Shown here piece after piece: positions 3,143-20,791 of a DNA stretch of 20,791 nt. Below the pieces are notes generated by a model. That model made no database searches. It saw only the letters and a list, made by a program, of their open reading frames with translations, and was not told the origin of the DNA. The DNA comes from a virus (lineage: Duplodnaviria > Heunggongvirae > Uroviricota > Caudoviricetes): positions 1 through 20,791 of the IMG/VR virus record IMGVR_UViG_2563366825_000026; one strand, given 5' to 3'. A program made the position numbers and the translations under genes. How positions within the stretch are numbered: position 1 is the stretch's first letter; each line of letters begins with the position of its first letter.

Positions 3143-5125
3143 TTATGCTGATTCCCGGTTTTCGTTAACTTTGACTGTGACCGTATCAAGCAGTACCGGA
3201 TACGTCGCTTTTGCCCCCGTGATATCTGTCAGCGTCAGCGTATCTGCTGTAAAGCCATCATTTGTCCACATCACCAGGTCAAACGCAGACTGCTCTGCAT
3301 CATCAATCACCGGCACCACTTTTTCGCTGTTATTTCCCGCAAAGCGGAAAACAACTGTATGCCAGTTATGGTCAAATGCCCCAAATGTGCCCAGTTGCGC
3401 ATTCGACTCCCCCTTGTGGTACATCAGATTCAGATTTGATGCATCCGTCTGAAGGAAGAAGGACGCCAGCATGCTGTTTGCTGTCGCGCCTGACGCCCAC
3501 TGCGACACCGGCCAGTACAGACCAAAGACAAACTGACCGTTAACCAGTTCGACACCCTCCGGGATCTTAAACCGCACGGCAATTTCACCTCCCTTACTGA
3601 GAAGATTTTTTGCCTCCTCCACCGCAACAGTACGGAACATCTTCCAGGAGGTCAGTTTACCCGGCTGTTTTTCCAGTCGCAGCGCCTTCCTGCCACTGTC
3701 ATCCGTCACAGTGCCTTTACCACCGGACGCATTCCACTGCTGCTCTGTCCATACACCACTGCCACTGTTCGCATCATATCCGGCCACCATTCTTGTTACG
3801 GCTTCAGTATGACCGCCTGCAGAAATACCTGCACCCTGCTGTTGCGTCGGACCCGCAGAGCCAGACTGTGCATCCCCCGTGGAGGCTGGCGTGGTCGCCA
3901 GCGGTGCAGACTGCCCGCTCAGGAACGGCAGCAAACGCCCGGCTCGCACCAGTATCTCTCCTGCCAGCCGATCTGAAACAATGCCTCTTCGCGCCCAGGA
4001 GCTGAAGTGCGTTTTACGAGCGGCTGTCGTCCAGTTACCATTACTGCGTGACGCGGCACCATAGTATCCCGCCGTGATAATGTCCGGATCTTCTGACGGC
4101 TCGTTTGTCGGCACATTCGCACCATGCTCATCCGTCATCAACGGCACAAAGTGAATATTCTGCGCCGCCTTGCCTTTATAGCCTCCGTAAACCGCCTCAT
4201 ACTGCACTGCATACTTCGCCTTCCAGTCGTACGTGGTGTCACCGCAAATCCACGGGACGCCGGACGTTGTCCCGCCAATACACTGGTCTGCAATATCTGC
4301 CAGGTCTGCACGGTATTTATTTACCATGGCAAGAAAAAGTGCATTGTGCTCTGCATGTCTCCCCGAACTGACATCTTTTTCCCCCTGCATCCAGATCACC
4401 GACAACAGCACGTTTTTCGGATTTTTCTTCAGGGCTGCACGCGTTCTGCTGACCAGGTCACGATACAACGGTTTATCCACCCCCCACAGGGAAGAGCCCG
4501 CTGTCGCACCCGACGCCTCATTAAACGCGCCCTCTGCTCCCGCAGTAAATCCCGAATCGCCACGTCCACACGGGACAAGAAGGATCCCCGCACGGGCAGG
4601 CATAAACGGCAGCAGTTTTTTGGCCACATGCAGGGCATGCCCCACACAGCCATACTGCCCTTTATTGAGGTCTGCTTTCGGGTGATTCAGATTACTCACG
4701 TCCTGCACATCATGCAGACAATGGTCTGCAGGAATAATGTCGTTATATGCACAGGCCGCACCGCCCGGTGTCACCGTGCTGCGACGCGCCAGTTGCTTAA
4801 TACGCGGGTCAGGACGATCATACGTATCCGGCAGCGGCAGCCCCTCGCCAAAAGACATCGAGTTGGACTGCCCGGCCAGCGCAATGACAAAGTAATATTC
4901 CGGTTCGCTGGTGGTGCTGATAACAGCGCCACCATCACCCGACGGTTGCACCACCACCGGTGTGGTGACATCACCTTCCGCCGCAATGGCCTGCATCAGG
5001 GTATAGGGCGTGATGGCGACAGGGCTGCCAAATGGCTGCCACCCCTCCTTCAGTTTTTGAGTCAGTCGCTCCGCAAGGTCTGACGGCGACGCCGCCCTGA
5101 CCACGTCATAGTGTTTAAATGTCAT
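3143..5125 (-). CDS. nanS: prophage-encoded sialate O-acetylesterase, NanS-p-like (N-terminal DUF1737-like region + SASA/SGNH esterase domain + C-terminal domain)
   Basis: 660 aa; ATG at 5125 with GGGAGG upstream. The FVIALAGQSNSMSFGEG block is the esterase-type GQSN motif. Size and architecture match the NanS-p proteins found just upstream of the lysis genes in Stx-type lambdoid prophages. Confidence 0.8.
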   Translation of the reverse strand: MTFKHYDVVRAASPSDLAERLTQKLKEGWQPFGSPVAITPYTLMQAIAAEGDVTTPVVVQPSGDGGAVISTTSEPEYYFVIALAGQSNSMSFGEGLPLPDTYDRPDPRIKQLARRSTVTPGGAACAYNDIIPADHCLHDVQDVSNLNHPKADLNKGQYGCVGHALHVAKKLLPFMPARAGILLVPCGRGDSGFTAGAEGAFNEASGATAGSSLWGVDKPLYRDLVSRTRAALKKNPKNVLLSVIWMQGEKDVSSGRHAEHNALFLAMVNKYRADLADIADQCIGGTTSGVPWICGDTTYDWKAKYAVQYEAVYGGYKGKAAQNIHFVPLMTDEHGANVPTNEPSEDPDIITAGYYGAASRSNGNWTTAARKTHFSSWARRGIVSDRLAGEILVRAGRLLPFLSGQSAPLATTPASTGDAQSGSAGPTQQQGAGISAGGHTEAVTRMVAGYDANSGSGVWTEQQWNASGGKGTVTDDSGRKALRLEKQPGKLTSWKMFRTVAVEEAKNLLSKGGEIAVRFKIPEGVELVNGQFVFGLYWPVSQWASGATANSMLASFFLQTDASNLNLMYHKGESNAQLGTFGAFDHNWHTVVFRFAGNNSEKVVPVIDDAEQSAFDLVMWTNDGFTADTLTLTDITGAKATYPVLLDTVTVKVNENRESA

Positions 5126-5319
5126 GAATCCTCCCGGTCGGGATAATGTTGTGAGTCAGATGAGGGAACGGGCTGAAGTCCGGAAGTTACAGGACAATGG
5201 CAGGAGGAAGACTACAGCCCGCAATACGAAAAAGGCCGCGCTATTGCGCAGAGTGATTACTGTCGGATATTATTCGCCAGCTGAAATATTACTTCACGTT
5301 TTGTTGTTTATTCCTTGCC

Positions 5320-5348
5320 GCCCGCGTCTCCCAGCGCGGGCTTTTTTT
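5320..5348 (+). terminator. intrinsic-terminator-like hairpin, plus-strand oriented
   Basis: Stem GCCCGCG (5320-5326) / CGCGGGC (5335-5341), then TTTTTTT (5342-5348). A second GC hairpin AGCCCCTC/GAGGGGCT lies at 5360-5379. Confidence 0.45.
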
Positions 5349-5696
5349 GTCCATAAGAAAGCCCCTCCGGAGAGGGGCTGGAGAGTGGCGCTATGTGCCA
5401 TTGCATGGTGCCGGGTGCCTCCCGGTGAGTTCAGTATCAGCACCTGAACCCGCACAGAAAGGATAAGGGTCGGTGACAAAACACCAGTTGCTGATTGCCC
5501 CTCCGCACAGGGGGATTCACCATGCCAGTTTCTTTTAACAAACTCCCCGCAAACCAGACAACAGTCAACCGCCTGAATTGTGAGGTATTTAAAAATTTCA
5601 ACGGGTAACTGATACCCTGCTAATCGCCTGATGCTTTCTTTTTCAGCAACGGGGAAGCAACAACCACCACACCCACCAGCCGCCCATTTACCACAA

Positions 5697-5722
5697 ATAA
5701 AAAAGCCTTCACTGCGGAAGGC
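5697..5722 (-). terminator. intrinsic terminator downstream of the small HTH-like gene
   Basis: Stem GCCTTC (5705-5710) / GAAGGC (5717-5722); on the minus strand it is followed by UUUUUU (complement of 5699-5704). Overlaps the gene's stop codon. Confidence 0.5.
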
Positions 5723-5906
5723 GTCTGTAACAACCGAACTGATAGTCTGCCAGACCCGCCATAACCAGCTGGGTCAGTATTAACTGGCAGCGTTCGCGTG
5801 AAAGGTAAGTATTCTGCGCAATCTCCCCGACTGTCGCCGGGTAGGTGACGCTTAATTCATTAAACACCACTCTGGCGGTTTCTGTCATATCCTGCTGTTT
5901 TAGCAT
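5709..5906 (-). CDS. small putative helix-turn-helix protein (65 aa)
   Basis: ATG at 5906 with GGGAAA-type SD. The TVGEIAQNTYLSRERCQLILTQLVMAGL block looks like an HTH. Bracketed by the tR'-like terminator upstream and its own terminator downstream. The track's longer version (to 5996) would run into the terminator region. Confidence 0.45.
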   Translation of the reverse strand: MLKQQDMTETARVVFNELSVTYPATVGEIAQNTYLSRERCQLILTQLVMAGLADYQFGCYRRLPQ

Positions 5907-6023
5907 GTCTTTTTCCCTTTTCCGGTTAACGTGACATACCAATAACTCTTGTCTAAAAAGCCAGCAAGCTGAAAGACAGGTATTCACCACCAGCACGTTT
6001 ACTGTACTGATGCGATTTCAGTC

Positions 6024-6112
6024 ATAAAAAACCCGCCAGGCGGCGGGTTTAAGTTGTGTGGCGTAGTAACCACTCTTAACATACTGACATACTTTTTGCG
6101 GACCGCGCTAAT
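6024..6112 (-). promoter_or_regulatory. late-promoter region: putative PR'-like promoter and qut region followed by a tR'-like intrinsic terminator
   Basis: Just downstream of the Q-like stop on the minus strand: stem CCCGCC/GGCGGG (6032-6047) followed by UUUUUUAU. About 35-60 nt upstream lie an A-rich tract and weak sigma70-like hexamers (TGATTA - 17 - TATGTC). Geometry matches the lambda PR'/6S RNA/tR' arrangement; the exact hexamers are uncertain. Confidence 0.5.
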
Positions 6113-6500
6113 CATTTTTTACTTTTTTGGGCAGCCAGTCGTCCATCTCCAGCCTTACACCCAGCATCGACAGACATCCGTCAATAAATCCTTCAGCAAT
6201 CTGCATCTCAATTCGTATTGCCTTTTCGCTCTTCTTTCTTGTTCTGGCAATCTGCCTTTTTGATATGCGCAGCAGATAATGAGCTACCAGCAGCGAATAC
6301 TCGTCCGGTTTTTTCTTCTTCAGGCGCGTAAGGCAGTTTTCGATGATAAGGCCGTCATCATCGCTGCAGGCCGGGCGAGGTTTAGCGGTGGATGGTAAAA
6401 GGCCTTTAAATCCAGCAGCTATCGGAGAATAGTCCACCCCGGTGTTACCACTTGCCGCCCATGCCCCCCAGCGTTCAAGAACCATCTGAATATCACGCAT
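6108..6500 (-). CDS. Q: late-gene antitermination protein Q-like (short Q family, about 130 aa)
   Basis: ATG at 6500 with GGAGA 6 nt upstream (the track ORF starts at a TTG at 6515). Position is diagnostic: last gene before the tR'-like terminator and the late genes, directly after the nin-region genes. Family identity is from memory of short Q proteins and is unverified. Confidence 0.6.
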   Translation of the reverse strand: MRDIQMVLERWGAWAASGNTGVDYSPIAAGFKGLLPSTAKPRPACSDDDGLIIENCLTRLKKKKPDEYSLLVAHYLLRISKRQIARTRKKSEKAIRIEMQIAEGFIDGCLSMLGVRLEMDDWLPKKVKND

Positions 6501-6517
6501 CAACTTTCTCCACAAAA

Positions 6518-7513
6518 TCAGGACAGCACACCAATCGCCAGTGCGCGATCGATAAAACGAAATATCAGCTCCAGTTGGGAACCATACTTCTCTTCAAATG
6601 CCACGGTATCCACATGCAGTTCGTCATGGTGTTTTCTGCACAAAGGCAACACAAAGAGATCATGCGCTTTTGTCCCCATACCACCCTGGCCGTGACCAAT
6701 CAGATGATGCGGATCATCAGCTGGCTTTCCACAACATGCACACGGCTGCGTCTTAACCCAGCGAGTGTACTTTTCATTAACCCAGCGACGACGTTTGGGG
6801 CGTAACATAAAAGACTCCGGCGACTCCGGATCCACTTTCAGCGCCAGCACCTTTTTCGCTTTATCCCGGATAATACTGGTGGCAGTAACCGAAGGTACAA
6901 GGTCACTCTCCCGGGTGACAGACGGCAAAACAGGCTTCGGTAATCTCAGGGCCTTACGGGCTGCACTTTCCGGTAAAGCATCCGCCAGGTCATTACGAAC
7001 CAGCCACCAGCACAGTTCCGGCATTGTCACAACGTGACTGTCATCAAAACCAAGATCACGGCGCACAACAGACAACACCCAGCGGGCACAGTTATCCGTT
7101 GCCATTGCTTCCAGCCGTTCCGTGAACTGGTCACGGAGAAGATTGTCACAGTGCCAGCACAGACGGATTGCGCCTGGCGCGTGCCGCATTGTGGTCATGT
7201 TCTCGCTGTGCCAGTCGGAATGAGGCCACTGACAGCCCTTTTCACGAAGTAACCAGCTCTCAAGGCATTCCACGCCACCAGCACGACGGATCACCGCCTC
7301 ATGGCGGAACACGGCCCGAACGGCAGGATCATCCGCCAGCGGTTGTGATGATGCCGGAACGGCACCACTGGCAAAAGATGAATAACGTTCCGGCTCAGGC
7401 TCCAGCAGGACACGCCCCTGCATAAACAGGGGCATCAGCTCTGAACCTGGCCTGAACAATACGATCCCCATACGCGGGGCGATTTCAGGGGTCAGTAGTG
7501 CTCTCACGGTCAC
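6518..7513 (-). CDS. DUF968-family phage protein (YdfU-like) with C-terminal HNH-like Cys/His motif
   Basis: 331 aa. The C-terminal CACCGKPADDPHHLIGHGQGG...LCRKHHDELH is an HNH/zinc-finger-like signature typical of DUF968 proteins found upstream of Q in lambdoid prophages. Start codon uncertain (GTG at 7513 or 7507, ATG at 7471). Confidence 0.65.
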   Translation of the reverse strand: MTVRALLTPEIAPRMGIVLFRPGSELMPLFMQGRVLLEPEPERYSSFASGAVPASSQPLADDPAVRAVFRHEAVIRRAGGVECLESWLLREKGCQWPHSDWHSENMTTMRHAPGAIRLCWHCDNLLRDQFTERLEAMATDNCARWVLSVVRRDLGFDDSHVVTMPELCWWLVRNDLADALPESAARKALRLPKPVLPSVTRESDLVPSVTATSIIRDKAKKVLALKVDPESPESFMLRPKRRRWVNEKYTRWVKTQPCACCGKPADDPHHLIGHGQGGMGTKAHDLFVLPLCRKHHDELHVDTVAFEEKYGSQLELIFRFIDRALAIGVLS

Positions 7514-7514
7514 C

Positions 7515-8330
7515 TCAATGAACGGTATCGAGCAGCTTTAACAGCTCAGGGAATCGGGATTCGAAGAAATGCGGCTGCGTCTCGCGCGGATTTGCAGGAC
7601 TGGTGATGTTCTTGCCGAACATGCAGCCTTTCGCTGTCAGCGACCAGAATTTTTTGATGTTGTTAATCGCGGTACGGCTGTATCGTTCGCGTTGTTCAAC
7701 GATCCCCAGCTTCGCCATCTGGTGATATGCCTGATTAGCCGTCAGGCGGATACCATACTGCTTCAGCAGTGCACTCAGCGACAGCGTAGGGCGGCTTGAA
7801 CCATCTGGCGCATCAGCAGGTGCATCAATGGCATAGATCGGCATAAGTTCAGGAAGACCAGCTACCTTTGATAATTTCTGGTATGCACCAAGTTTCGAGG
7901 AGTTTGACAGATTTAGAGTCTTTGCTGCTGATTCAAGCAGAATGACCCCGGATTTAATTTTGTCGGATGTGGTTTCTTCTGGTGATGAATTATGAAGCGC
8001 ATCAAAAGTACGTATCACTTTTAAGCTGAATGCCGGGCTGATCCACATTGCATATGCATAGACCAGCTCTTTACAGACATACGTCCCACCATTGCGCCCC
8101 TGAATGGTGATGACAGGAATACTACGGGAATCTCCCGTAGTTTCTTCTTCCAATAATTCCACAAGAGCCTTCGTTTCAGGACGACGCATAAACTCGTGAA
8201 CTTCCAGCGAACGGGAGGAGCGATTCTCACCAGCGGCAAGAAGAGCAGCTTTCTGAAGGTCGTTAAGACAGTAGTTAGATTCGAAGTACTGGCGCACAGA
8301 AACGCCATCAATTACAAGCAACTGATTCAT
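7515..8330 (-). CDS. KilA-N domain protein (antirepressor / Roi-like or BstA-like)
   Basis: ATG at 8330 with GGAGA 6 nt upstream. The N-terminal block VCKELVYAYAMWISPAFSLKVIRTFD is KilA-N/APSES-like; the C-terminal half is unassigned. It is the only gene in this operon with a long (about 150 bp) upstream intergenic region. Confidence 0.7.
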   Translation of the reverse strand: MNQLLVIDGVSVRQYFESNYCLNDLQKAALLAAGENRSSRSLEVHEFMRRPETKALVELLEEETTGDSRSIPVITIQGRNGGTYVCKELVYAYAMWISPAFSLKVIRTFDALHNSSPEETTSDKIKSGVILLESAAKTLNLSNSSKLGAYQKLSKVAGLPELMPIYAIDAPADAPDGSSRPTLSLSALLKQYGIRLTANQAYHQMAKLGIVEQRERYSRTAINNIKKFWSLTAKGCMFGKNITSPANPRETQPHFFESRFPELLKLLDTVH

Positions 8331-8393
8331 TGGTTTCTCCACAAATTTTTATCCACGAGCGGGACTGCACTCCCTTTTCGTTGATGCAGGATG

Positions 8394-8445
8394 AACTTAC
8401 TGCGATTTTTAATAGTTATCAAGGATACACTGTTCATAAATACAG
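8394..8445 (-). promoter_or_regulatory. promoter of the KilA-N gene with a LexA (SOS) box
   Basis: CTGT-N8-ACAG at 8430-8445 (cACTGTtcataaatACAGta), a near-consensus LexA box with AT-rich spacer. On the minus strand, candidate sigma70 elements are TTGATA (8422-8417) - 17 nt - TAAGTT (8399-8394), or alternatively TGAACA inside the box - 16 nt - TATTAA (8414-8409). Confidence 0.55.
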
Positions 8446-8492
8446 TATCTTTAACGAGGTAATACCCAAATTTAGGGTGTTGCTCAATTCCG

Positions 8493-8888
8493 TTACCGAG
8501 TTGCTAATTTGCAACTCGCTTTTTCGTACTTACTGATAGTGATCTCGACCTTCCCTTCCGGGATAACCGGTCCCCACTCCACCAGCATTCTTTTCACCTG
8601 GCTGTCGTCTTCCCACACACCCGCGTGGGTCAGGGCGTCAAACAGCGCCTTGTTATAGTTGTCCAGATCGCGGATCCGGTTATCCGGAGGAAACAACACG
8701 ATCTCCACTGAAGCAGGTGCCGACGTTGGTTTCGGCAGACGACGTAACTGCTCAACTATTGCTGCACACGCCGCGCTCTGGAATTTTCGCCCCGCCGCGC
8801 TTATCAGGCTCTTACCAGCAAACGCCCCTTTATTGGGGTGTCGCCAGTACGTGTTCACGCTGGGCGGAAAAGGCAGTATTAGCTTCAT
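8493..8888 (-). CDS. rusA: Holliday junction resolvase RusA (crossover junction endodeoxyribonuclease)
   Basis: 131 aa; LPFPPSVNTYWRH...DLDNYNKALFDALTHAGVWEDDSQV matches RusA family motifs as remembered from E. coli RusA (catalytic DLDN region). Start overlaps the upstream gene's stop (ATGA). Confidence 0.85.
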   Translation of the reverse strand: MKLILPFPPSVNTYWRHPNKGAFAGKSLISAAGRKFQSAACAAIVEQLRRLPKPTSAPASVEIVLFPPDNRIRDLDNYNKALFDALTHAGVWEDDSQVKRMLVEWGPVIPEGKVEITISKYEKASCKLATR

Positions 8889-9211
8889 ACTTTCAGGCCC
8901 CTCTCATGTAACCAGTGGGCTGCACGCAGCCTGGCGTTTGCCTCACCGGCAAGCAGGGCGCGGATAATCCCGACCGCCTCGCTGTCGTCGTCCTTCACCG
9001 CGGTATGAAGAGTGATACCCCGGGCCACGCCACGCTTTATCGTGATGACACCTTTTTTCTCCAGTGCGCGAAGATGCTCCACCGCTGCATTCACCGAACG
9101 GTATCCCAGCATGGTTGCCACCTCCTGATTGGTTGGCGGGAAGCCACGTTCTTTCTGATAAGAAATCAGCATATCCAGCACCTGCTGCTGGCATTGAGTT
9201 AATGTCGTCAT
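8885..9211 (-). CDS. LexA-like winged-helix DNA-binding protein (LexA N-terminal domain only, no S24 peptidase domain)
   Basis: 108 aa; LTQCQQQVLDMLISYQKERGFPPTNQEVATMLGYRSVNAAVEHLRALEKKGVI resembles the N-terminal domain of LexA (LTARQQEVFDLI...[34 protein letters not shown]). Translationally coupled to the genes on both sides. Confidence 0.7.
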   Translation of the reverse strand: MTTLTQCQQQVLDMLISYQKERGFPPTNQEVATMLGYRSVNAAVEHLRALEKKGVITIKRGVARGITLHTAVKDDDSEAVGIIRALLAGEANARLRAAHWLHERGLKV

Positions 9212-9861
9212 GCCGCCATCTCCCTGACCAGTTTTTCCGCCTGCTGGCGAACCTGCGCCAGAAATGCCTCACCACATGCCTCAAGTTCATCGCGCCCGAT
9301 GTAGCTGATTGCCGCTCCCTTCCAGGTCTTGTCGAAAACAGCAATAGCACCAGCGAAGAAAGCACCTGTTGGCACCTGCTTTTCGTCTTTCGGGATAAAC
9401 CAGGCTGGCAGTTCAAAACCAATACGCCCGCGAATAAAAGCAATATGATCTGCATCTTCCGGCCACCACACTTCGCTGGTGGCCGCTTTGATCAGGAAAA
9501 CATAGCGCCCGCCTTTATCACGCATGGCACTGGCATGCTTCATGATGTAACGCATGCCGGTGATGTATTGTCCCTCATGCTGACTGGCGCGGCTGTACGG
9601 GGGATTACCAAAGGCAGCACCTTTAAGCTCCGCAAGACGTTCTGACCAGTCATGTGCCAGCGCGTTGTCTTCCGCCGTGTAATACGCGGCACATTTGGCG
9701 TTATCACCGTCAGTAAACAGATCCAGAACAAACGGGCCAAACAGGGTGTTAATTCCCCAGAAAATGTTGTCCGGCGTGCGCCACTGATCGCCCACTTCCT
9801 TCAGTTCATGGGCTGGTTTGTTCCGTAGTTCCACCAGCGCCTGGCAATATTTATTACTCAT
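9208..9861 (-). CDS. phage DNA N6-adenine methyltransferase (Dam-like)
   Basis: ATG at 9861 overlaps the upstream stop (TAATG). FGNPPYS is an NPPY catalytic motif of N6-adenine methyltransferases. Position in the nin region is typical; corresponds to yfdM of CPS-53 by synteny. Confidence 0.8.
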   Translation of the reverse strand: MSNKYCQALVELRNKPAHELKEVGDQWRTPDNIFWGINTLFGPFVLDLFTDGDNAKCAAYYTAEDNALAHDWSERLAELKGAAFGNPPYSRASQHEGQYITGMRYIMKHASAMRDKGGRYVFLIKAATSEVWWPEDADHIAFIRGRIGFELPAWFIPKDEKQVPTGAFFAGAIAVFDKTWKGAAISYIGRDELEACGEAFLAQVRQQAEKLVREMAA

Positions 9862-10355
9862 TAAGCCCCCACGTAATTCCCTGACAGATACCACTCATCA
9901 CCCGCTACAGCGCGCTTTCTGCTTTTCCGTAAGCACCGCTCACGACGCGCCAGAAAATTGTTTCGTTCTGGCTGGGAGTGGCTTTCACGGAATGCCGCCA
10001 TCCACACGGTTGCAGCACGACGGTATAAGCCCCTGGACTCCAGTTCTTCCGCCTGGCGGGTCAGGCACAAAATCACCCGGGGATCGTTAGTGCCGACATA
10101 GAAATTGCGCACAGGTATGGTTTCAAGAACAGGTTGCAGTTTCTCCTCCTGCGATATCTCAGCCTGGTGTGGGAAATGTCTGCGTGTTTTCCCTTCACAA
10201 CAGTGAGCCACACGGCCACTCTGACGTAACTTGCTTGCTGACTGCAGAACGCACTGTCGTGAGTAACCAGCAAAAGCATCCGCAATGTCACCTGAAGTAC
10301 ACCCCGGATGGGCTTCAATGAATTTCTGTACATCGTTCATCAGACTCATGATCAC
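9861..10355 (-). CDS. hypothetical protein (164 aa), possible PerC-like regulator; yfdN-like by synteny and length
   Basis: Start overlaps the O-like stop (ATGA). Contains an HTH-like segment and an ELESRGLYRRAATVWMAAF block reminiscent of PerC-family proteins. Assignment from memory only. Confidence 0.5.
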   Translation of the reverse strand: MIMSLMNDVQKFIEAHPGCTSGDIADAFAGYSRQCVLQSASKLRQSGRVAHCCEGKTRRHFPHQAEISQEEKLQPVLETIPVRNFYVGTNDPRVILCLTRQAEELESRGLYRRAATVWMAAFRESHSQPERNNFLARRERCLRKSRKRAVAGDEWYLSGNYVGA

Positions 10356-11391: not shown

Positions 11392-12539
11392 TTGCGCCCC
11401 CTTACCTCTGAAGGGTTCAGCGACAAATTTATGAGACTGGCCAGTAGCGCCGCGTCGTTGATGCGGTCATACAGACTTACAGCCAGCGGGGATTCGGCTT
11501 TTGCCAACATGGGATAAAGCTGCTGCAGCCAGACCTGATGAATTGATGAAATGTAGGAATAGAGAACGCTGGCGTTATATGCAACGTCGCTCAGTACAGA
11601 GGGATTTGAAAGCTGTTTCTCCATCTGGTTAAAGGCATTGATGTATGCCTCTTTGAACCGGGCAGCACGTTTACCCGTGAAGCCCATGGCAAGAAACGCA
11701 AAACCGTCGCGGGTGATTTGGTAACAAGGGAGTTTGCGGCCTGATGCGTCGGTGTATTCACTTAACACAAAATTGTGTTCAGTAAATTCAGCGGAACATT
11801 CGAGGTTTCTAATTCTATCTAAAACCCGCTCATGCCGTTTAGTAAAGTAATTAGCTACTGCAAGAGATGTGGTGACAACGCGACCATTGATAATCGTGAT
11901 TTCAGGGTGAGATTGGGTTGGGAGAGTAGTCATGGTGACAGCCCCTATGTTGAATTCAATGAACTCACCACCAAGGCTTTCCACGACCATATAGGTGGTG
12001 AGACGTACAGGGGTGGAAATACCGGTCAACATAGAACCCGGCCCAACCGAAGTTGGCCCTGCACGCCCCACCATAATTTGGGCGTAACGATGCTCATGAC
12101 ACGAAAAAACCGCATGAGCGCGGTTGTGCTCTATATTGAATTTCGGGTTTCCACGCCCGGCACCCGCTTTATAAGGTGCCTGAACAGTGTAACGTCCCGG
12201 AATTGCAGAATCAATATGCTGGTGGTCCTTCACACTCAACAAAATCACGCCTGAATTTCCACAAAGGACTAAAGCACTCATGCGGGTAGTCTTTGCGAAG
12301 ATAGATAACGCGCTGTGTTTCTGGCTCCCAACGAATAACATGGACATAAAGCCCTCTTCCGTCACGAAACCAGCGGTTAAGTTCCTGCACAACTCGCCCC
12401 CCACAGTCAGGTAAAGTTCTCTGTGGTTACTTACAGCCAGGTGATTTGGTAATCTGCATTCATGCCGTAACAACAGGTGTTCAGCGACGCTGACCACCAG
12501 CTGTTGCGACAAACGGTTATTTGCCGTTAAACTATTCAT
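11388..12539 (-). CDS. Rha-domain phage regulatory protein with an N-terminal extension of about 200 aa of unknown function
   Basis: Residues from about 203 (MTTLPTQSHPEITIINGRVVTTSLAVANYFTKRHERVLDRIRNLECSAEF...DGFAFLAMGFTGKRAARFKEAYINAFNQME) match the Rha domain, which is usually N-terminal. An internal ATG at 11933 with an AGGGG SD could give a 181-aa Rha-only product. The 12539 ATG overlaps the upstream stop (ATGA), supporting the long form. Confidence 0.6.
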   Translation of the reverse strand: MNSLTANNRLSQQLVVSVAEHLLLRHECRLPNHLAVSNHRELYLTVGGELCRNLTAGFVTEEGFMSMLFVGSQKHSALSIFAKTTRMSALVLCGNSGVILLSVKDHQHIDSAIPGRYTVQAPYKAGAGRGNPKFNIEHNRAHAVFSCHEHRYAQIMVGRAGPTSVGPGSMLTGISTPVRLTTYMVVESLGGEFIEFNIGAVTMTTLPTQSHPEITIINGRVVTTSLAVANYFTKRHERVLDRIRNLECSAEFTEHNFVLSEYTDASGRKLPCYQITRDGFAFLAMGFTGKRAARFKEAYINAFNQMEKQLSNPSVLSDVAYNASVLYSYISSIHQVWLQQLYPMLAKAESPLAVSLYDRINDAALLASLINLSLNPSEVRGRK

Positions 12540-19477: not shown

Positions 19478-20791
19478 ATGGATAAAGTCAAATATCCAAC
19501 AGGCGTCGAAAACCACGGCGGCACATTACGCATCTGGTTTAATTTTAAAGGTAAACGTGTCAGGGAAAATCTTGGTGTCCCTGACACTGCCAAGAACAGG
19601 AAGATCGCCGGGGAACTGCGGACATCGGTATGTTTTGCCATCCGCACAGGAAGCTTTGATTATGCTGCACAGTTCCCTGACTCCCCCAACCTTCAGGCTT
19701 TTGGGGTAAGTAAAAAAGAAATTACGGTGAAGGAACTTGAAGAAAAGTGGCTGGATCTGAAACGAATGGAAATCTCTGCAAATGCATTCAATCGCTATGA
19801 ATCCGTTGCAAGAACGATGGTTTCGAAAATTGGAGGCAGTAGACTGGTGTCATCGGTAACCAAAGAGGAATTGCTGTATATCAGGAAAGATTTGCTAACC
19901 GGGTATCAGAATTCAACGAAAAACAAAGCAGCAGCAAAAGGACGGAGCGTCGTTACTGTAAATTATTACATGACGACAATCGCTGGAATGTTTCAGTTTG
20001 CTGCAGATCACGGTTACTTAGAAGCAAATCCCTTCCAGGGAATTAAGCCTCTTAAAAGAGCCAGGGCAGAGCCAGATCCGCTAACTCGTGACGAATTTAT
20101 TCGCCTGATAGATGCTTGCCGACATCAGCAGACGAAAAACCTGTGGTCATTGGCTGTGTACACAGGAATGCGTCACGGTGAACTGGTCTCCCTGGCCTGG
20201 GAAGATATCGATCTGAAGGCAGGAACAATTACCATCAGGCGCAATTATACGAAACTTGGTGAGTTCACTCTACCGAAAACTGAAGCAAGCACAAACAGGG
20301 TTGTGCACCTTATCCAGCCCGCTATCAGTGTCCTGAAAAATCAGGCTGAAATGACAAGACTGGGTAAGCAGTACAACATCAAGGTGCAACTACGTGAATA
20401 TGGACGTTCAGTGAACCATGAATGTACTTTCGTGTTTAACCCTCAAGTGGTTAGAAAAAGCGAACAGGTAGGTTTTGTCTACAAAGTCGATTCTGTAGGT
20501 GACTCATGGGAAACAGCCATTAAGCGTGCAGGGATCAGGCATCGAAAGGCATACCAGTCACGACACACTTATGCGTGCTGGTCATTATCTGCCGGAGCAA
20601 ACCCAAGCTTCATTGCCAGCCAGATGGGCCATGCAAGTGCCCAGATGGTATTCAATGTATACGGAGCATGGATGACTGACAGCAATGCAGAACAGATCGC
20701 AATGCTGAATCAGAAGCTGACAGATTATGTCCCAATGATGCCCCATAGTCACCAAAGTGACACCAGAGGCTTATTAAAATCAGTAAGTTAA
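19478..20791 (+). CDS. int: tyrosine site-specific integrase (lambda Int family)
   Basis: 437 aa with TGGAGGT SD. Catalytic-domain signatures (R...HxxR...Y: RHGELVSLAWEDID, SRHTYACWSL, MVFNVYGAWM). The stop codon is the last three bases of the window. Confidence 0.9.
   Translation: MDKVKYPTGVENHGGTLRIWFNFKGKRVRENLGVPDTAKNRKIAGELRTSVCFAIRTGSFDYAAQFPDSPNLQAFGVSKKEITVKELEEKWLDLKRMEISANAFNRYESVARTMVSKIGGSRLVSSVTKEELLYIRKDLLTGYQNSTKNKAAAKGRSVVTVNYYMTTIAGMFQFAADHGYLEANPFQGIKPLKRARAEPDPLTRDEFIRLIDACRHQQTKNLWSLAVYTGMRHGELVSLAWEDIDLKAGTITIRRNYTKLGEFTLPKTEASTNRVVHLIQPAISVLKNQAEMTRLGKQYNIKVQLREYGRSVNHECTFVFNPQVVRKSEQVGFVYKVDSVGDSWETAIKRAGIRHRKAYQSRHTYACWSLSAGANPSFIASQMGHASAQMVFNVYGAWMTDSNAEQIAMLNQKLTDYVPMMPHSHQSDTRGLLKSVS

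Follow-up and report, generated by a model that had tools for sequence, protein, structure and literature searches.

A very probably collapsed cargo slot with two convergent small RNA genes between Q and nanS of an stx-negative lambdoid Escherichia coli prophage

Eight Sakai prophages carry convergent pairs of Hfq-binding small RNAs (sRNAs) in their moron site, located 3' of PR' (PMC4104026; PMC7873438). Tree et al. (2014, PMC4104026) describe related anti-sRNAs (AsxR) as primary transcripts of only 51-60 nt that have triphosphorylated 5' ends. Members of the STnc100 family have been detected as discrete Hfq-bound RNAs (PMC7873438, PMC8550237, PMC12370729), and relatives of PasD were found to be Hfq-dependent by Northern blot (PMC8550237). 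In O157 strains, STnc100 overlaps the Hfq-bound EcOnc27/sRNA103 (PMC12711010), as does the 933W/Sakai counterpart of the copy described below. Sp5, Sp15, and 933W produce StxS, a 258-nt pR'-tR' transcript with a stable 74-nt 3' part (PMC7547250). Here, we analysed a stretch of 20,791 nucleotides from the virus record IMGVR_UViG_2563366825_000026 (the window). Its Q-nanS interval, which lies in an stx-negative lambdoid E. coli prophage, is very probably a collapsed late-operon cargo ("moron") slot that includes such a convergent sRNA pair.

The Q-nanS interval and its missing cargo

All genes of the interval are located on the minus strand. In phage order, Q is followed by a promoter-proximal terminator, a gene for a 65-aa winged-helix protein with its own terminator, about 580 bp without a supported ORF, and a nanS-like esterase gene. 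The elements listed in the original prediction (Q, a hairpin after Q, the 65-aa ORF with its terminator, ORF-poor DNA, and nanS) are all present where they had been placed, and they lie on this strand; the several hairpins that it mentioned correspond to a real enrichment of terminator-like structures (6 vs. 1.8 +/- 1.3 in shuffles). The antiterminator gene Q (6108..6515, minus strand) is of the Q21/Q82 type according to its Pfam match (Phage_antitermQ PF06530, E=3.1e-52, 175.9 bits) and its place ahead of the late promoter and the lysis genes, and it distantly matches the Q21 structures 6jnx/6p18 (E=1.4e-7). The RefSeq annotation was taken from a Q-nanS locus (L003) that is identical to that of the window; there the protein is named "antiterminator Q family protein", and the start of Q would be at 6503. 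At the other end, the first gene after the slot (3143..5125, minus strand) encodes a nanS-p-like sialate O-acetylesterase with DUF1737, SASA, and DUF6645, which RefSeq names "SASA family carbohydrate esterase".

A pR'/qut-like block (6057..6115, minus strand), identified by homology only, is the putative late promoter region. Its core ATG-TAAGAGTGGTTAC---GCCAC is invariant relative to the putative pR' (20666-20693) and qut (20707-20714) of 933W. No consensus sigma-70 promoter for pR' emerged from a hexamer scan of the minus strand, and the promoter spacer contains three inserted nucleotides compared with the putative pR' of 933W, so that the exact -10 and -35 hexamers are not fixed. The promoter-proximal intrinsic terminator (6022..6056, minus strand; AAACCCGCCGCCUGGCGGGUUUUUU) consists of a 9-bp GC-rich hairpin and U6 at 6056..6028 (fold -22 kcal/mol, z -2.67). 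Its counterpart in 933W is the first "possible rho-independent terminator" (20726-20748), a homologous hairpin with different loop and stem bases. The original prediction had called the window hairpin tR', but it matches the first, promoter-proximal terminator of 933W, whereas the 258-nt StxS transcript ends at another one (PMC7547250). StxS was also rejected as the identity of the hairpin-rich DNA: only 57 nt (6082..6026, comprising promoter, qut, and first hairpin) align with the StxS region of 933W-type phages, the 74-nt 3' sequence of StxS is absent, and the winged-helix gene takes up the remainder of the StxS-equivalent stretch.

The proposal of a variable cargo slot between Q/pR' and nanS agrees well with sibling Stx2a phages, which place a methylase gene, three tRNA genes, and stx2AB exactly there, between the winged-helix terminator and STnc100. 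The DUF968-Q-winged-helix DNA of these phages is ~93% identical to that of the window. None of their cargo was recovered here. ARAGORN predicted 0 tRNAs in the whole window and Rfam gave no tRNA match, in line with the earlier impression that no tRNA was visible; the absence of stx-like sequence was likewise confirmed, because tblastn with Stx1A/B and Stx2A/B gave chance-level matches only (E of at least 0.2), of which a single one, with Stx2A at the nanS start codon (E=6.3), falls within 5126-6107. Searches with the phage methylase and the iraM-like protein (tblastn) and with tRNA regions (blastn-short) also gave chance-level matches only and none in 5126-6107. Fragments of stxA or stxB and tRNAs of the ileZ/argN/argO type, the hallmarks of Stx-converting cargo, are thus absent from the window.

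Comparison with the Q-stx-nanS regions of Stx phages, suggested at the outset as a means to define the boundaries, placed the edges to base level. In the Stx2a phage L002, 2.84 kb (methylase, three tRNAs, and stx2AB) stand in place of 85 bp of the window, with window 5669|5583 corresponding to L002 6582|9421. An Escherichia albertii prophage (L011) has the window layout plus 1,522 bp that contain the methylase gene, tRNA-Met, tRNA-Arg, and a truncated third tRNA. Window 5720..5669 equals L011 5129-5180 (100%) and window 5667..5575 equals L011 6703-6795 (97.8%). Since these two flanks adjoin in the window, it lacks the 1,522 bp of L011, and the deletion junction lies at 5667..5669 (minus strand); its left breakpoint is common to the comparisons with L011 and L002 (6582). 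L011 differs from the window by one base at the junction and is therefore not the exact parent. GT-rich microhomology (GGTGGGTGT / GGCGGGTGTGT) occurs on both parental flanks of the junction, beside a Chi site. However, Chi is very frequent over the whole window (16 sites), which weakens the case for a special role of this sequence at the junction. The 85-bp spacer from the junction to the STnc100 module (5584..5668, minus strand) matches L011 6703-6786 and has no match in L002; homology with PhiR12-type phages begins at 5633, and homology with 933W-like and Stx1c phages at 5600. The edges of the cargo slot are thereby known to base level, with the winged-helix terminator and a Chi-containing 21-mer on the left and a point ~30-45 nt upstream of STnc100 on the right, and may be useful for typing stx-loss or stx-gain events.

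An orphaned winged-helix gene

The gene at 5709..5906 (minus strand) had been described as HTH-like. Homologues, predicted fold, and Foldseek agree with this description and specify a winged-helix protein. Its 332 homologues come from Enterobacteriaceae and carry the names TrmB-family or DprA-like winged helix in their source records, and it matches phrog_331 (E=3e-37). The AlphaFold model (pLDDT 93) has the order H-H-H-beta-hairpin (H9-16, H26-33, H37-49, E53-56, E59-62), so that the predicted structure shows the three-helix bundle and beta-hairpin wing typical of the fold, and Foldseek retrieves OhrR (2pex, TMq 0.80) and IclR-type N-domains (0.77). At the sequence level, Pfam winged-helix matches were all sub-threshold (TrmB 15.9 bits with a cut-off of 25.6, HTH_Crp_2 13.6, DprA_WH 13.5) and a PDB search gave no match; among the structural comparisons, the fold search alone was informative. 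An intrinsic terminator (5695..5722, minus strand; GCCUUCCGCAGUGAAGGC + UUUUUUAUUU; z -3.07) with a hairpin and U6 at 5722..5705 covers the stop codon.

In all 18 winged-helix loci from other genomes, which span ~12 genera, an N6_N4_Mtase gene is located ~155 nt downstream, and for this reason the gene in the window is regarded as an orphan. Losses in the window are wider than stx and tRNAs, as the methylase partner is missing too. In intact loci, the leader of ~140 nt between the two genes is highly conserved, with a predicted 19-bp hairpin that carries Chi in its 5' arm. RNAalifold predicted this hairpin with a covariation term of 0.02, the sequences being too invariant for covariation. The 5' arm persists in the window as an invariant 21-mer (AAATGGGCGGCTGGTGGGTGT; 5669..5689, minus strand; Chi at 5680..5673), which is 100% identical in 16 of the 18 contig loci and in L001, L002, and L003, and the 3' arm is deleted. 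We tentatively consider, as a possibility that is open to considerable doubt, that winged-helix protein, leader, and N6/N4 methylase form a conserved late-operon module in many enterobacterial genera. The winged-helix protein might then control the methylase or late read-through via the leader, the Chi hairpin might be a preferred RecBCD-linked breakpoint for cargo loss or exchange, and the window would contain the orphaned regulator left behind. The link to a phage methylase via an unusually conserved leader is in any case a modest new lead on methylase regulation.

The same leader bears on the history of the interval. An alignment with the non-Stx phage PhiR5_1, a deposited complete phage genome (record host E. 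coli C) of identical layout, extends over the full interval (97.8%). Most of the interval, in the identical layout, also occurs in 25 complete E. coli genomes, in 13 of them at 96-100%. The original prediction had named an end-to-end match with a common non-Stx lambdoid backbone as a finding that would refute it. Such a match was found in part, with PhiR5_1 and these genomes, and the cargo-slot reading is kept. One could argue from this wide occurrence, and from the lack of cargo fragments in the window, that the interval is ancestral backbone that was never occupied, with methylase, tRNAs, and stx gained elsewhere by insertion and nothing deleted here. We consider this very unlikely, and it is already disfavoured by the constant succession of winged-helix gene, highly conserved leader, and methylase across genera, by the break exactly at the apex of the leader hairpin that leaves the 5' arm only, by the microhomology at both parental flanks, and by the half tRNA in L011, which represents a scar. 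From synteny and this truncated tRNA we infer that a deletion probably took place here rather than an insertion elsewhere, although these data do not prove the direction of the event.

The convergent sRNA genes upstream of nanS

The DNA between the winged-helix gene and nanS had been regarded as ~570 bp of ORF-poor sequence. It indeed lacks a Pfam-supported ORF (5126-5708, 583 bp) but is not featureless, as it consists of an STnc100 gene and a gene of the EcOnc42 family. The former (5349..5554, minus strand) is a full-length match to Rfam RF02076 (model 1-206) with 143.2 bits at a gathering score of 47. It lies in the lambdoid late region, downstream of the cargo slot and upstream of the nanS-like and lysis genes, and family members occupy this position also in 933W (75 nt after stx2B), Stx2a, Stx1c, phi296, and PhiR12_1. 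A promoter is predicted on the minus strand with the -35 box TTGTCT (5561..5556) and the -10 box TTAAAA (5538..5533). The pattern TTGyCT-17-TTAAAA is kept in 11 copies at the proper distance from the mapped 5' end of PasD2 (PMC8550237 Table S6), by analogy with which the 5' end in the window is likely at about 5525. The terminator is located at 5379..5360 (minus strand).

The STnc100-like DNA might also function in cis, as a structured part of the late transcript (a nanS leader or a decayed sRNA gene), instead of being an independent sRNA gene, and several features would be compatible with this. The hexamer scan did not reveal a consensus sigma-70 promoter for STnc100, the -10 (TTAAAA/TAAAAG) and the terminator U-tract (UUUCUUAU) are weaker than in the Stx-phage copies, and the folding z-score is only -2.1. 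However, the covariance match is full length and far over the threshold with its helices kept, the promoter boxes are conserved with the right spacing, relatives were seen as discrete Hfq-bound RNAs (PMC7873438, PMC8550237, PMC12370729), and the allele of the window is retained in identical form in PhiR12/PhiR5 phages. A cis element is thus unlikely, and an independent STnc100 gene is the preferred reading. Its product would be a discrete Hfq-associated RNA, as shown for relatives only (PMC7873438, PMC12711010, PMC12370729).

The second gene (5155..5348, plus strand; 5' end estimated at 5155-5167) belongs to the EcOnc42/21/08 family (EPEC "E2348C_1409.E2348C_1408.IGR"). Over 354 nt, its locus has 94.6% identity with that of EPEC PP6, at which a 182-nt Hfq-associated RNA has been mapped by RNA-seq/RIL-seq (PMC8550237 Table S6). 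Homology includes the seed CCUUGCC (5312-5318), whose complement is the published target motif GGCAAGG, the GU-rich tract (5297-5311), and the terminator (5320-5341 + U7). The published sRNA sequence is matched over the last 50 nt at the 3' end, and within the 3' 70 nt a single loop base distinguishes the window from EPEC. The two sRNA genes converge, with their 3' ends at the adjoining positions 5348 (plus-strand gene) and 5349 (STnc100). A promoter-like site (ATGTCA-17-GATAAT) lies at 5119-5147 (plus strand), and the estimated 5' end is 20 nt from the best -10. The same paired layout exists in 933W (L009), with STnc100 at 3278-3483 (plus) and AsxR at 3485-3537 (minus). AsxR, AgvB, and Esr41 were rejected as identities of the hairpin-rich DNA for want of an Rfam match. 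The models of AsxR (RF02703) and AgvB (RF02702) gave no covariance match in 4900-6400 even at E<=5, whereas 933W gives AsxR with 88 bits. The 5' two-thirds of the plus-strand sRNA are common to the AsxR side of 933W and the 3' 70 nt differ. An initial hypothesis, in which AsxR-type RNAs arise by processing of a ~200-nt transcript that begins close to the start codon of nanS, was dropped because the short anti-sRNAs have triphosphorylated 5' ends (PMC4104026); the shared 5' DNA may reflect the nanS RBS and leader instead.

According to RefSeq and several phage records, the same DNA encodes small proteins or a pseudogene. RefSeq has a pseudo-CDS at 5395-5535 (plus strand), phage records contain hypothetical proteins, and phrog_31368 matches the plus-strand ORF 5124-5447. 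Nevertheless, none of the four ORFs of at least 40 aa has a Pfam match, every frame is broken by indels between copies (those of STnc100 relative to the Stx2a copy are not multiples of 3), the plus-strand ORF stays open across its own terminator, the strand of the annotated ORFs varies between records, and two RNA genes account for the DNA. A protein-coding function of 5126-5708 is extremely improbable and was rejected based on the missing Pfam support and the frame-breaking indels. The annotation is thereby settled: the DNA recorded as "hypothetical protein" or pseudogene upstream of nanS comprises two regulatory RNA genes that were already known, both of which can be retained by an stx-negative prophage.

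From the relatives we infer how sRNA expression, Hfq dependence, targets, and Q read-through may be arranged in the slot. In the lysogen, pR' transcripts would stop at the first or second terminator, and each sRNA would be transcribed from a promoter of its own and target host mRNAs in trans; for the near-identical EPEC sRNA, the leaders of cfa and dppA were captured as partners. After induction, Q-modified RNA polymerase would pass all minus-strand terminators, three clear and one weak, leading to expression of nanS and the lysis genes. The weak one is a terminator-like hairpin in the nanS leader (5236..5251, minus strand; z only -1.59) and mirrors, on the opposite strand, a hairpin inside the plus-strand sRNA. 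The nanS leader of the late transcript would then be perfectly complementary to this sRNA.

Comparison with known systems

The architecture of the interval is already known, and the locus is ordinary because it very probably represents the usual Shiga-toxin cargo site after a deletion, with "empty" DNA that consists of two already-described sRNA genes. The orphaned winged-helix/methylase module is the sole mildly new point. It resembles, by analogy, the C proteins of restriction-modification systems in that every intact locus encodes a small HTH-type protein just ahead of its DNA methyltransferase. C proteins, however, have an Xre-type HTH and not a winged helix. Moreover, no restriction endonuclease gene was seen adjoining the methylase, and holin/lysozyme genes directly follow in several loci. 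No C-box was identified at the winged-helix/methylase loci, and the likeness is one of functional analogy alone.

Stx2a phages with the same Q allele (e.g., Stx2_EH2201, LC567829) share the 93% identical DNA from DUF968 to the winged-helix gene, and the block of pR' and first hairpin is conserved even in 933W. In contrast to these phages, the window lacks methylase, tRNAs, stx2AB, and the iraM-like gene. The convergent pairs of Sakai and 933W (e.g., EcOnc27/AsxR after stx2B in Sp5/933W; PMC4104026) have in common with the window the position between cargo and nanS, the abutting 3' ends, and STnc100 on the sense strand. They differ in that the antisense partner of the window is neither AsxR nor AgvB and has another 3' seed/terminator module, and in that no cargo gene is located upstream of the window pair. 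PasD1 and PasD2 of EPEC share with the window STnc100 the 5' core GCAUGGUGAAUCC...GAACUnAnCGGGAGGC, the strand, and the location between Q and esterase (bioRxiv 10.64898/2026.05.13.724894), whereas the window copy is of the STnc100 type, without the PasD 3' seed/terminator (CCUUGUGAG...). PasD2 itself scores below the RF02076 threshold. Closest to the plus-strand gene is the EPEC sRNA E2348C_1409.E2348C_1408.IGR (PMC8550237), with ~95% identity over gene and flanks and an identical GU-rich tract, CCUUGCC seed, and terminator stem; like the window gene, it is antisense to a nanS-like gene and lies immediately 5' of it. In EPEC PP6, however, tRNAs follow Q and the STnc100 partner is split by ISEc13, whereas the STnc100 gene of the window is intact.

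Layout and content of the Q-nanS interval

The interval between Q and nanS (window 5126-6107) is the known late-operon cargo slot of lambdoid and Stx phages in a collapsed, toxin-free form, in which a known pair of convergent sRNAs and an orphaned winged-helix gene are retained. Every gene in this region is on the minus strand, so that phage order runs from high to low coordinates. Q (6515..6108, minus; Pfam Phage_antitermQ, E=3e-52) is preceded by an ORF on the same strand annotated with a DUF968 domain and directly followed by a GC-rich 9-bp hairpin with U6 (6056..6028, minus). The 65-aa winged-helix ORF (5906..5709, minus) has its stop codon inside another hairpin with U6 (5722..5705, minus), and a NanS-p-type esterase with DUF1737, SASA and DUF6645 domains (5125..3143, minus) follows the interval. 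The terminator scan found six terminator-like hairpins in 4900-6600 versus 1.8 ± 1.3 in shuffles. ARAGORN detected no tRNA gene in the whole window, and only chance-level matches were obtained with Stx1A/B, Stx2A/B, the phage methylase and an iraM-like protein (tblastn) or with the tRNA blocks of two Stx phages (blastn-short); the sole such match touching the interval (Stx2A, E=6.3, tblastn) lies over the nanS start. On these results, the original prediction of Q, a hairpin, a small ORF with its own terminator and the esterase, with no tRNA-like or stx-like sequence, is accurate. Its reading as a variable cargo slot also holds, but the DNA described as ORF-poor is the known sRNA pair.

The hairpin after Q had been taken for tR'. 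A terminator hairpin is indeed present, and the stretch reaching from the end of Q to this hairpin inclusive is conserved with phage 933W; the record of 933W annotates a putative pR' and a qut site as well as two instances of a "possible terminator", the first at 20726-20748 and the second at 20929-20957. However, the window hairpin is the homologue of the first 933W terminator and not of the second, at which StxS (258 nt, Sp5/Sp15) ends (PMC7547250); the next terminator in the window is that of the winged-helix gene. As StxS extends to the second terminator, transcription in Sp5/Sp15 passes the first hairpin, at least in part. Sequence comparison found the StxS 3' sequence absent from the window.

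Two E. coli strains, SW070917 and JNEC-KY204, carry the interval at 100% identity in chromosomal prophages. Among 5,426 complete genomes, 3,441 contain parts of it and 25 hold at least 80% as one piece, 13 of these aligning over the full length at 96-100% identity. An end-to-end alignment with a common non-Stx lambdoid backbone had been regarded as speaking against a Stx-phage architecture; the interval does align end to end with the non-Stx phage PhiR5_1 (97.8%). Elsewhere in the window, a C4 antisense RNA (11991-12078, minus; Rfam 82 bits) adjoins isrK (12103-12179, minus; Rfam 62 bits), which corresponds to a P1/P7-type c4-antirepressor immunity module and is also found upstream of Rha/Ant genes in three related phages (L002, L006, and L008).

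Boundaries and history of the cargo slot

The DNA from the DUF968 ORF through Q and the small ORF is 93% identical in Stx2a phages such as Stx2_EH2201 (window 7528..5669 = 4720..6582 of the Stx2a phage locus L002). L002 positions 6583-9420 then encode a 352-aa N6_N4 DNA methylase, three tRNAs and stx2AB, the window equivalent being 85 bp, and homology restarts at STnc100. These breaks (window 5669/5583 = L002 6582/9421) supply the boundaries sought in the original prediction and place the slot between the small-ORF terminator and ~30 nt upstream of STnc100. Both window flanks also occur in an E. albertii prophage (L011), with 5720..5669 matching 5129-5180 (100%) and 5667..5575 matching 6703-6795 (97.8%). 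Thus, the window lacks 1,522 bp of L011, comprising the methylase, tRNA-Met, tRNA-Arg, and a truncated third tRNA. The parental flanks are both GT-rich (…GGCTGGTGGGTGT| and …GGTGGCGGGTGTGT|), with a short microhomology at the join; this base-level deletion junction is a modest new point. L011 is collinear with the Stx2a phage as far as the middle of the third tRNA; the truncated tRNA is a scar left when the segment that carries stx2AB in Stx2a phages was lost or replaced at an earlier stage. A late region with methylase, tRNAs, and perhaps stx may have passed through an L011-like stx-less state to the window state, a direction of change suggested by synteny and scars. 933W (L009 1470-1580) and phi296 (L008 4054-4152) retain a methylase gene remnant of just the final ~100 bp, immediately ahead of the tRNA promoter. 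The 933W-type Q-stx region thus also derives from the winged-helix-methylase layout, by deletion or replacement.

The 65-aa protein, initially called HTH-like, has 332 homologues in E. coli, Shigella, Salmonella, Klebsiella, Citrobacter, Buttiauxella, and others. Its AlphaFold model (pLDDT 93) has a helix-helix-helix-beta-hairpin topology and best matches the winged-helix domains of OhrR/MarR and IclR-type regulators (TMq 0.77-0.80); Pfam winged-helix families match below threshold only. When one genome per species was scanned, the methylase gene lay ~155 nt downstream in 18/18 loci from about a dozen genera, and the winged-helix gene of the window is therefore an orphan whose methylase partner is missing. 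The ~140-nt leader between both genes (L011 5160-5295; L002 6562-6698; ~5205-5347 in L012-L027, further loci) is 80-100% conserved over ~12 genera, above the flanking coding DNA, and may serve to regulate the methylase. A 21-mer within it (AAATGGGCGGCTGGTGGGTGT), identical in 16/18 loci, makes up the 5' arm of a hairpin predicted to have 19 bp; the leader sequences are too invariant to show covariation in this hairpin. The window retains the 21-mer (5689..5669) without the loop and 3' arm, the leader being missing beyond 5669. This strict linkage and the near-invariant leader are a modest new point. In one 73-aa protein (P0110), the first ~54 residues match the winged-helix N-terminus (98% identical) and are fused to a segment of DUF3927, a small ORF upstream of PasD2 in EPEC PP2; this suggests a further recombinant junction, within the winged-helix gene.

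There are 16 copies of the Chi octamer GCTGGTGG in the 20.8 kb (window 1-20791; 0.69 expected, shuffle maximum 3), with 13/16 on the phage sense (minus) strand, including two in the interval (5673-5680 and 5987-5994). This strong oriented enrichment fits phages relying on Chi against RecBCD.

The convergent sRNA pair and its published counterparts

The late strand carries a full-length STnc100 (RF02076; 5554..5349, minus; Rfam 143.2 bits, gathering score 47). The family occupies the equivalent site in 933W (75 nt after stx2B), one Stx2a phage, the stx-less, 933W-like phi296, PhiR12_1, and, as two tandem copies, a Stx1c phage. STnc100 as predicted in O157 strains overlaps with EcOnc27/sRNA103, an sRNA bound by Hfq (PMC12711010; PMC7873438); STnc100 was detected in STEC vesicles (PMC12370729) and related to PasD in a 2026 preprint (10.64898/2026.05.13.724894). 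In alignment, PasD2 and the window copy have a common 5' core but a different 3' seed and terminator, and the window copy is thus STnc100-type. Boxes (TTGyCT-17 nt-TTAAAA) kept across 11 copies are correctly spaced from the mapped PasD2 5' end, the G of GCAUGG (PMC8550237 Table S6), which suggests a transcript of ~175 nt from roughly 5525 to 5350. Tandem diverged copies exist in the Stx1c phage phiSTEC1589 (L007 4539-4750 and 4812-5025) and in L011 (6818-7005 and 7288-7469). Several E. coli genomes match the interval as two pieces with ~470 bp extra, probably the same duplication. In EPEC PP6 (L005 1008-1100, 2621-2797), an ISEc13 insertion splits STnc100 and leaves intact the convergent partner, the RNA seen by RIL-seq.

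On the plus strand, window 5110-5352 is ~95% identical to this EPEC E2348/69 PP6 locus, where a 182-nt RNA ("E2348C_1409.E2348C_1408.IGR") was mapped by RNA-seq/RIL-seq (PMC8550237); its EHEC homologues are EcOnc08/21/42 and its RIL-seq partners cfa, dppA, emrA, and tir. The window copy retains the GU-rich tract and the terminator (5320-5341 plus U7) as well as the seed CCUUGCC (5312-5318), which is the complement of GGCAAGG, the published target motif. Its 3' end (5348) abuts that of STnc100 (5349). Overlapping the nanS start codon is a promoter-like site (ATGTCA-17-GATAAT, 5119-5147, plus), and the estimated EPEC 5' end corresponds to window ~5167, so that the start of the partner is an estimate only. 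The Rfam models of AsxR and AgvB had no match in the window.

Hypothetical or pseudo CDSs are annotated across the sRNA DNA, on one strand or the other, in RefSeq and several phage records. None of the four ORFs of at least 40 aa in this region matches Pfam, and indels between copies are not multiples of three. One plus-strand ORF matches a 40-aa PHROG of unknown function; its frame changes in the EPEC copy, and it reaches the terminator without meeting a stop codon.

Convergent Hfq-binding sRNA pairs are known from at least eight Sakai prophages, between moron genes downstream of PR' and a conserved nanS-like ORF (Tree et al. PMC4104026; review PMC7873438). The sRNA layout of the window is thus already published, and the slot architecture and both RNAs are already described. 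In L002, which has the same Q allele as the window, an iraM-like gene (9672-9995, minus) fills the antisense position between STnc100 and nanS, instead of an AsxR- or EcOnc42-type sRNA; tblastn found this gene absent from the window. In 933W the antisense partner is AsxR, whereas that of the window is EcOnc42/21/08-type. In alignment, the nanS-proximal two-thirds are common to both and the 3' ~70 nt, with seed and terminator, differ; that the divergence of these antisense sRNA alleles is confined to the 3' module is a modest new point.
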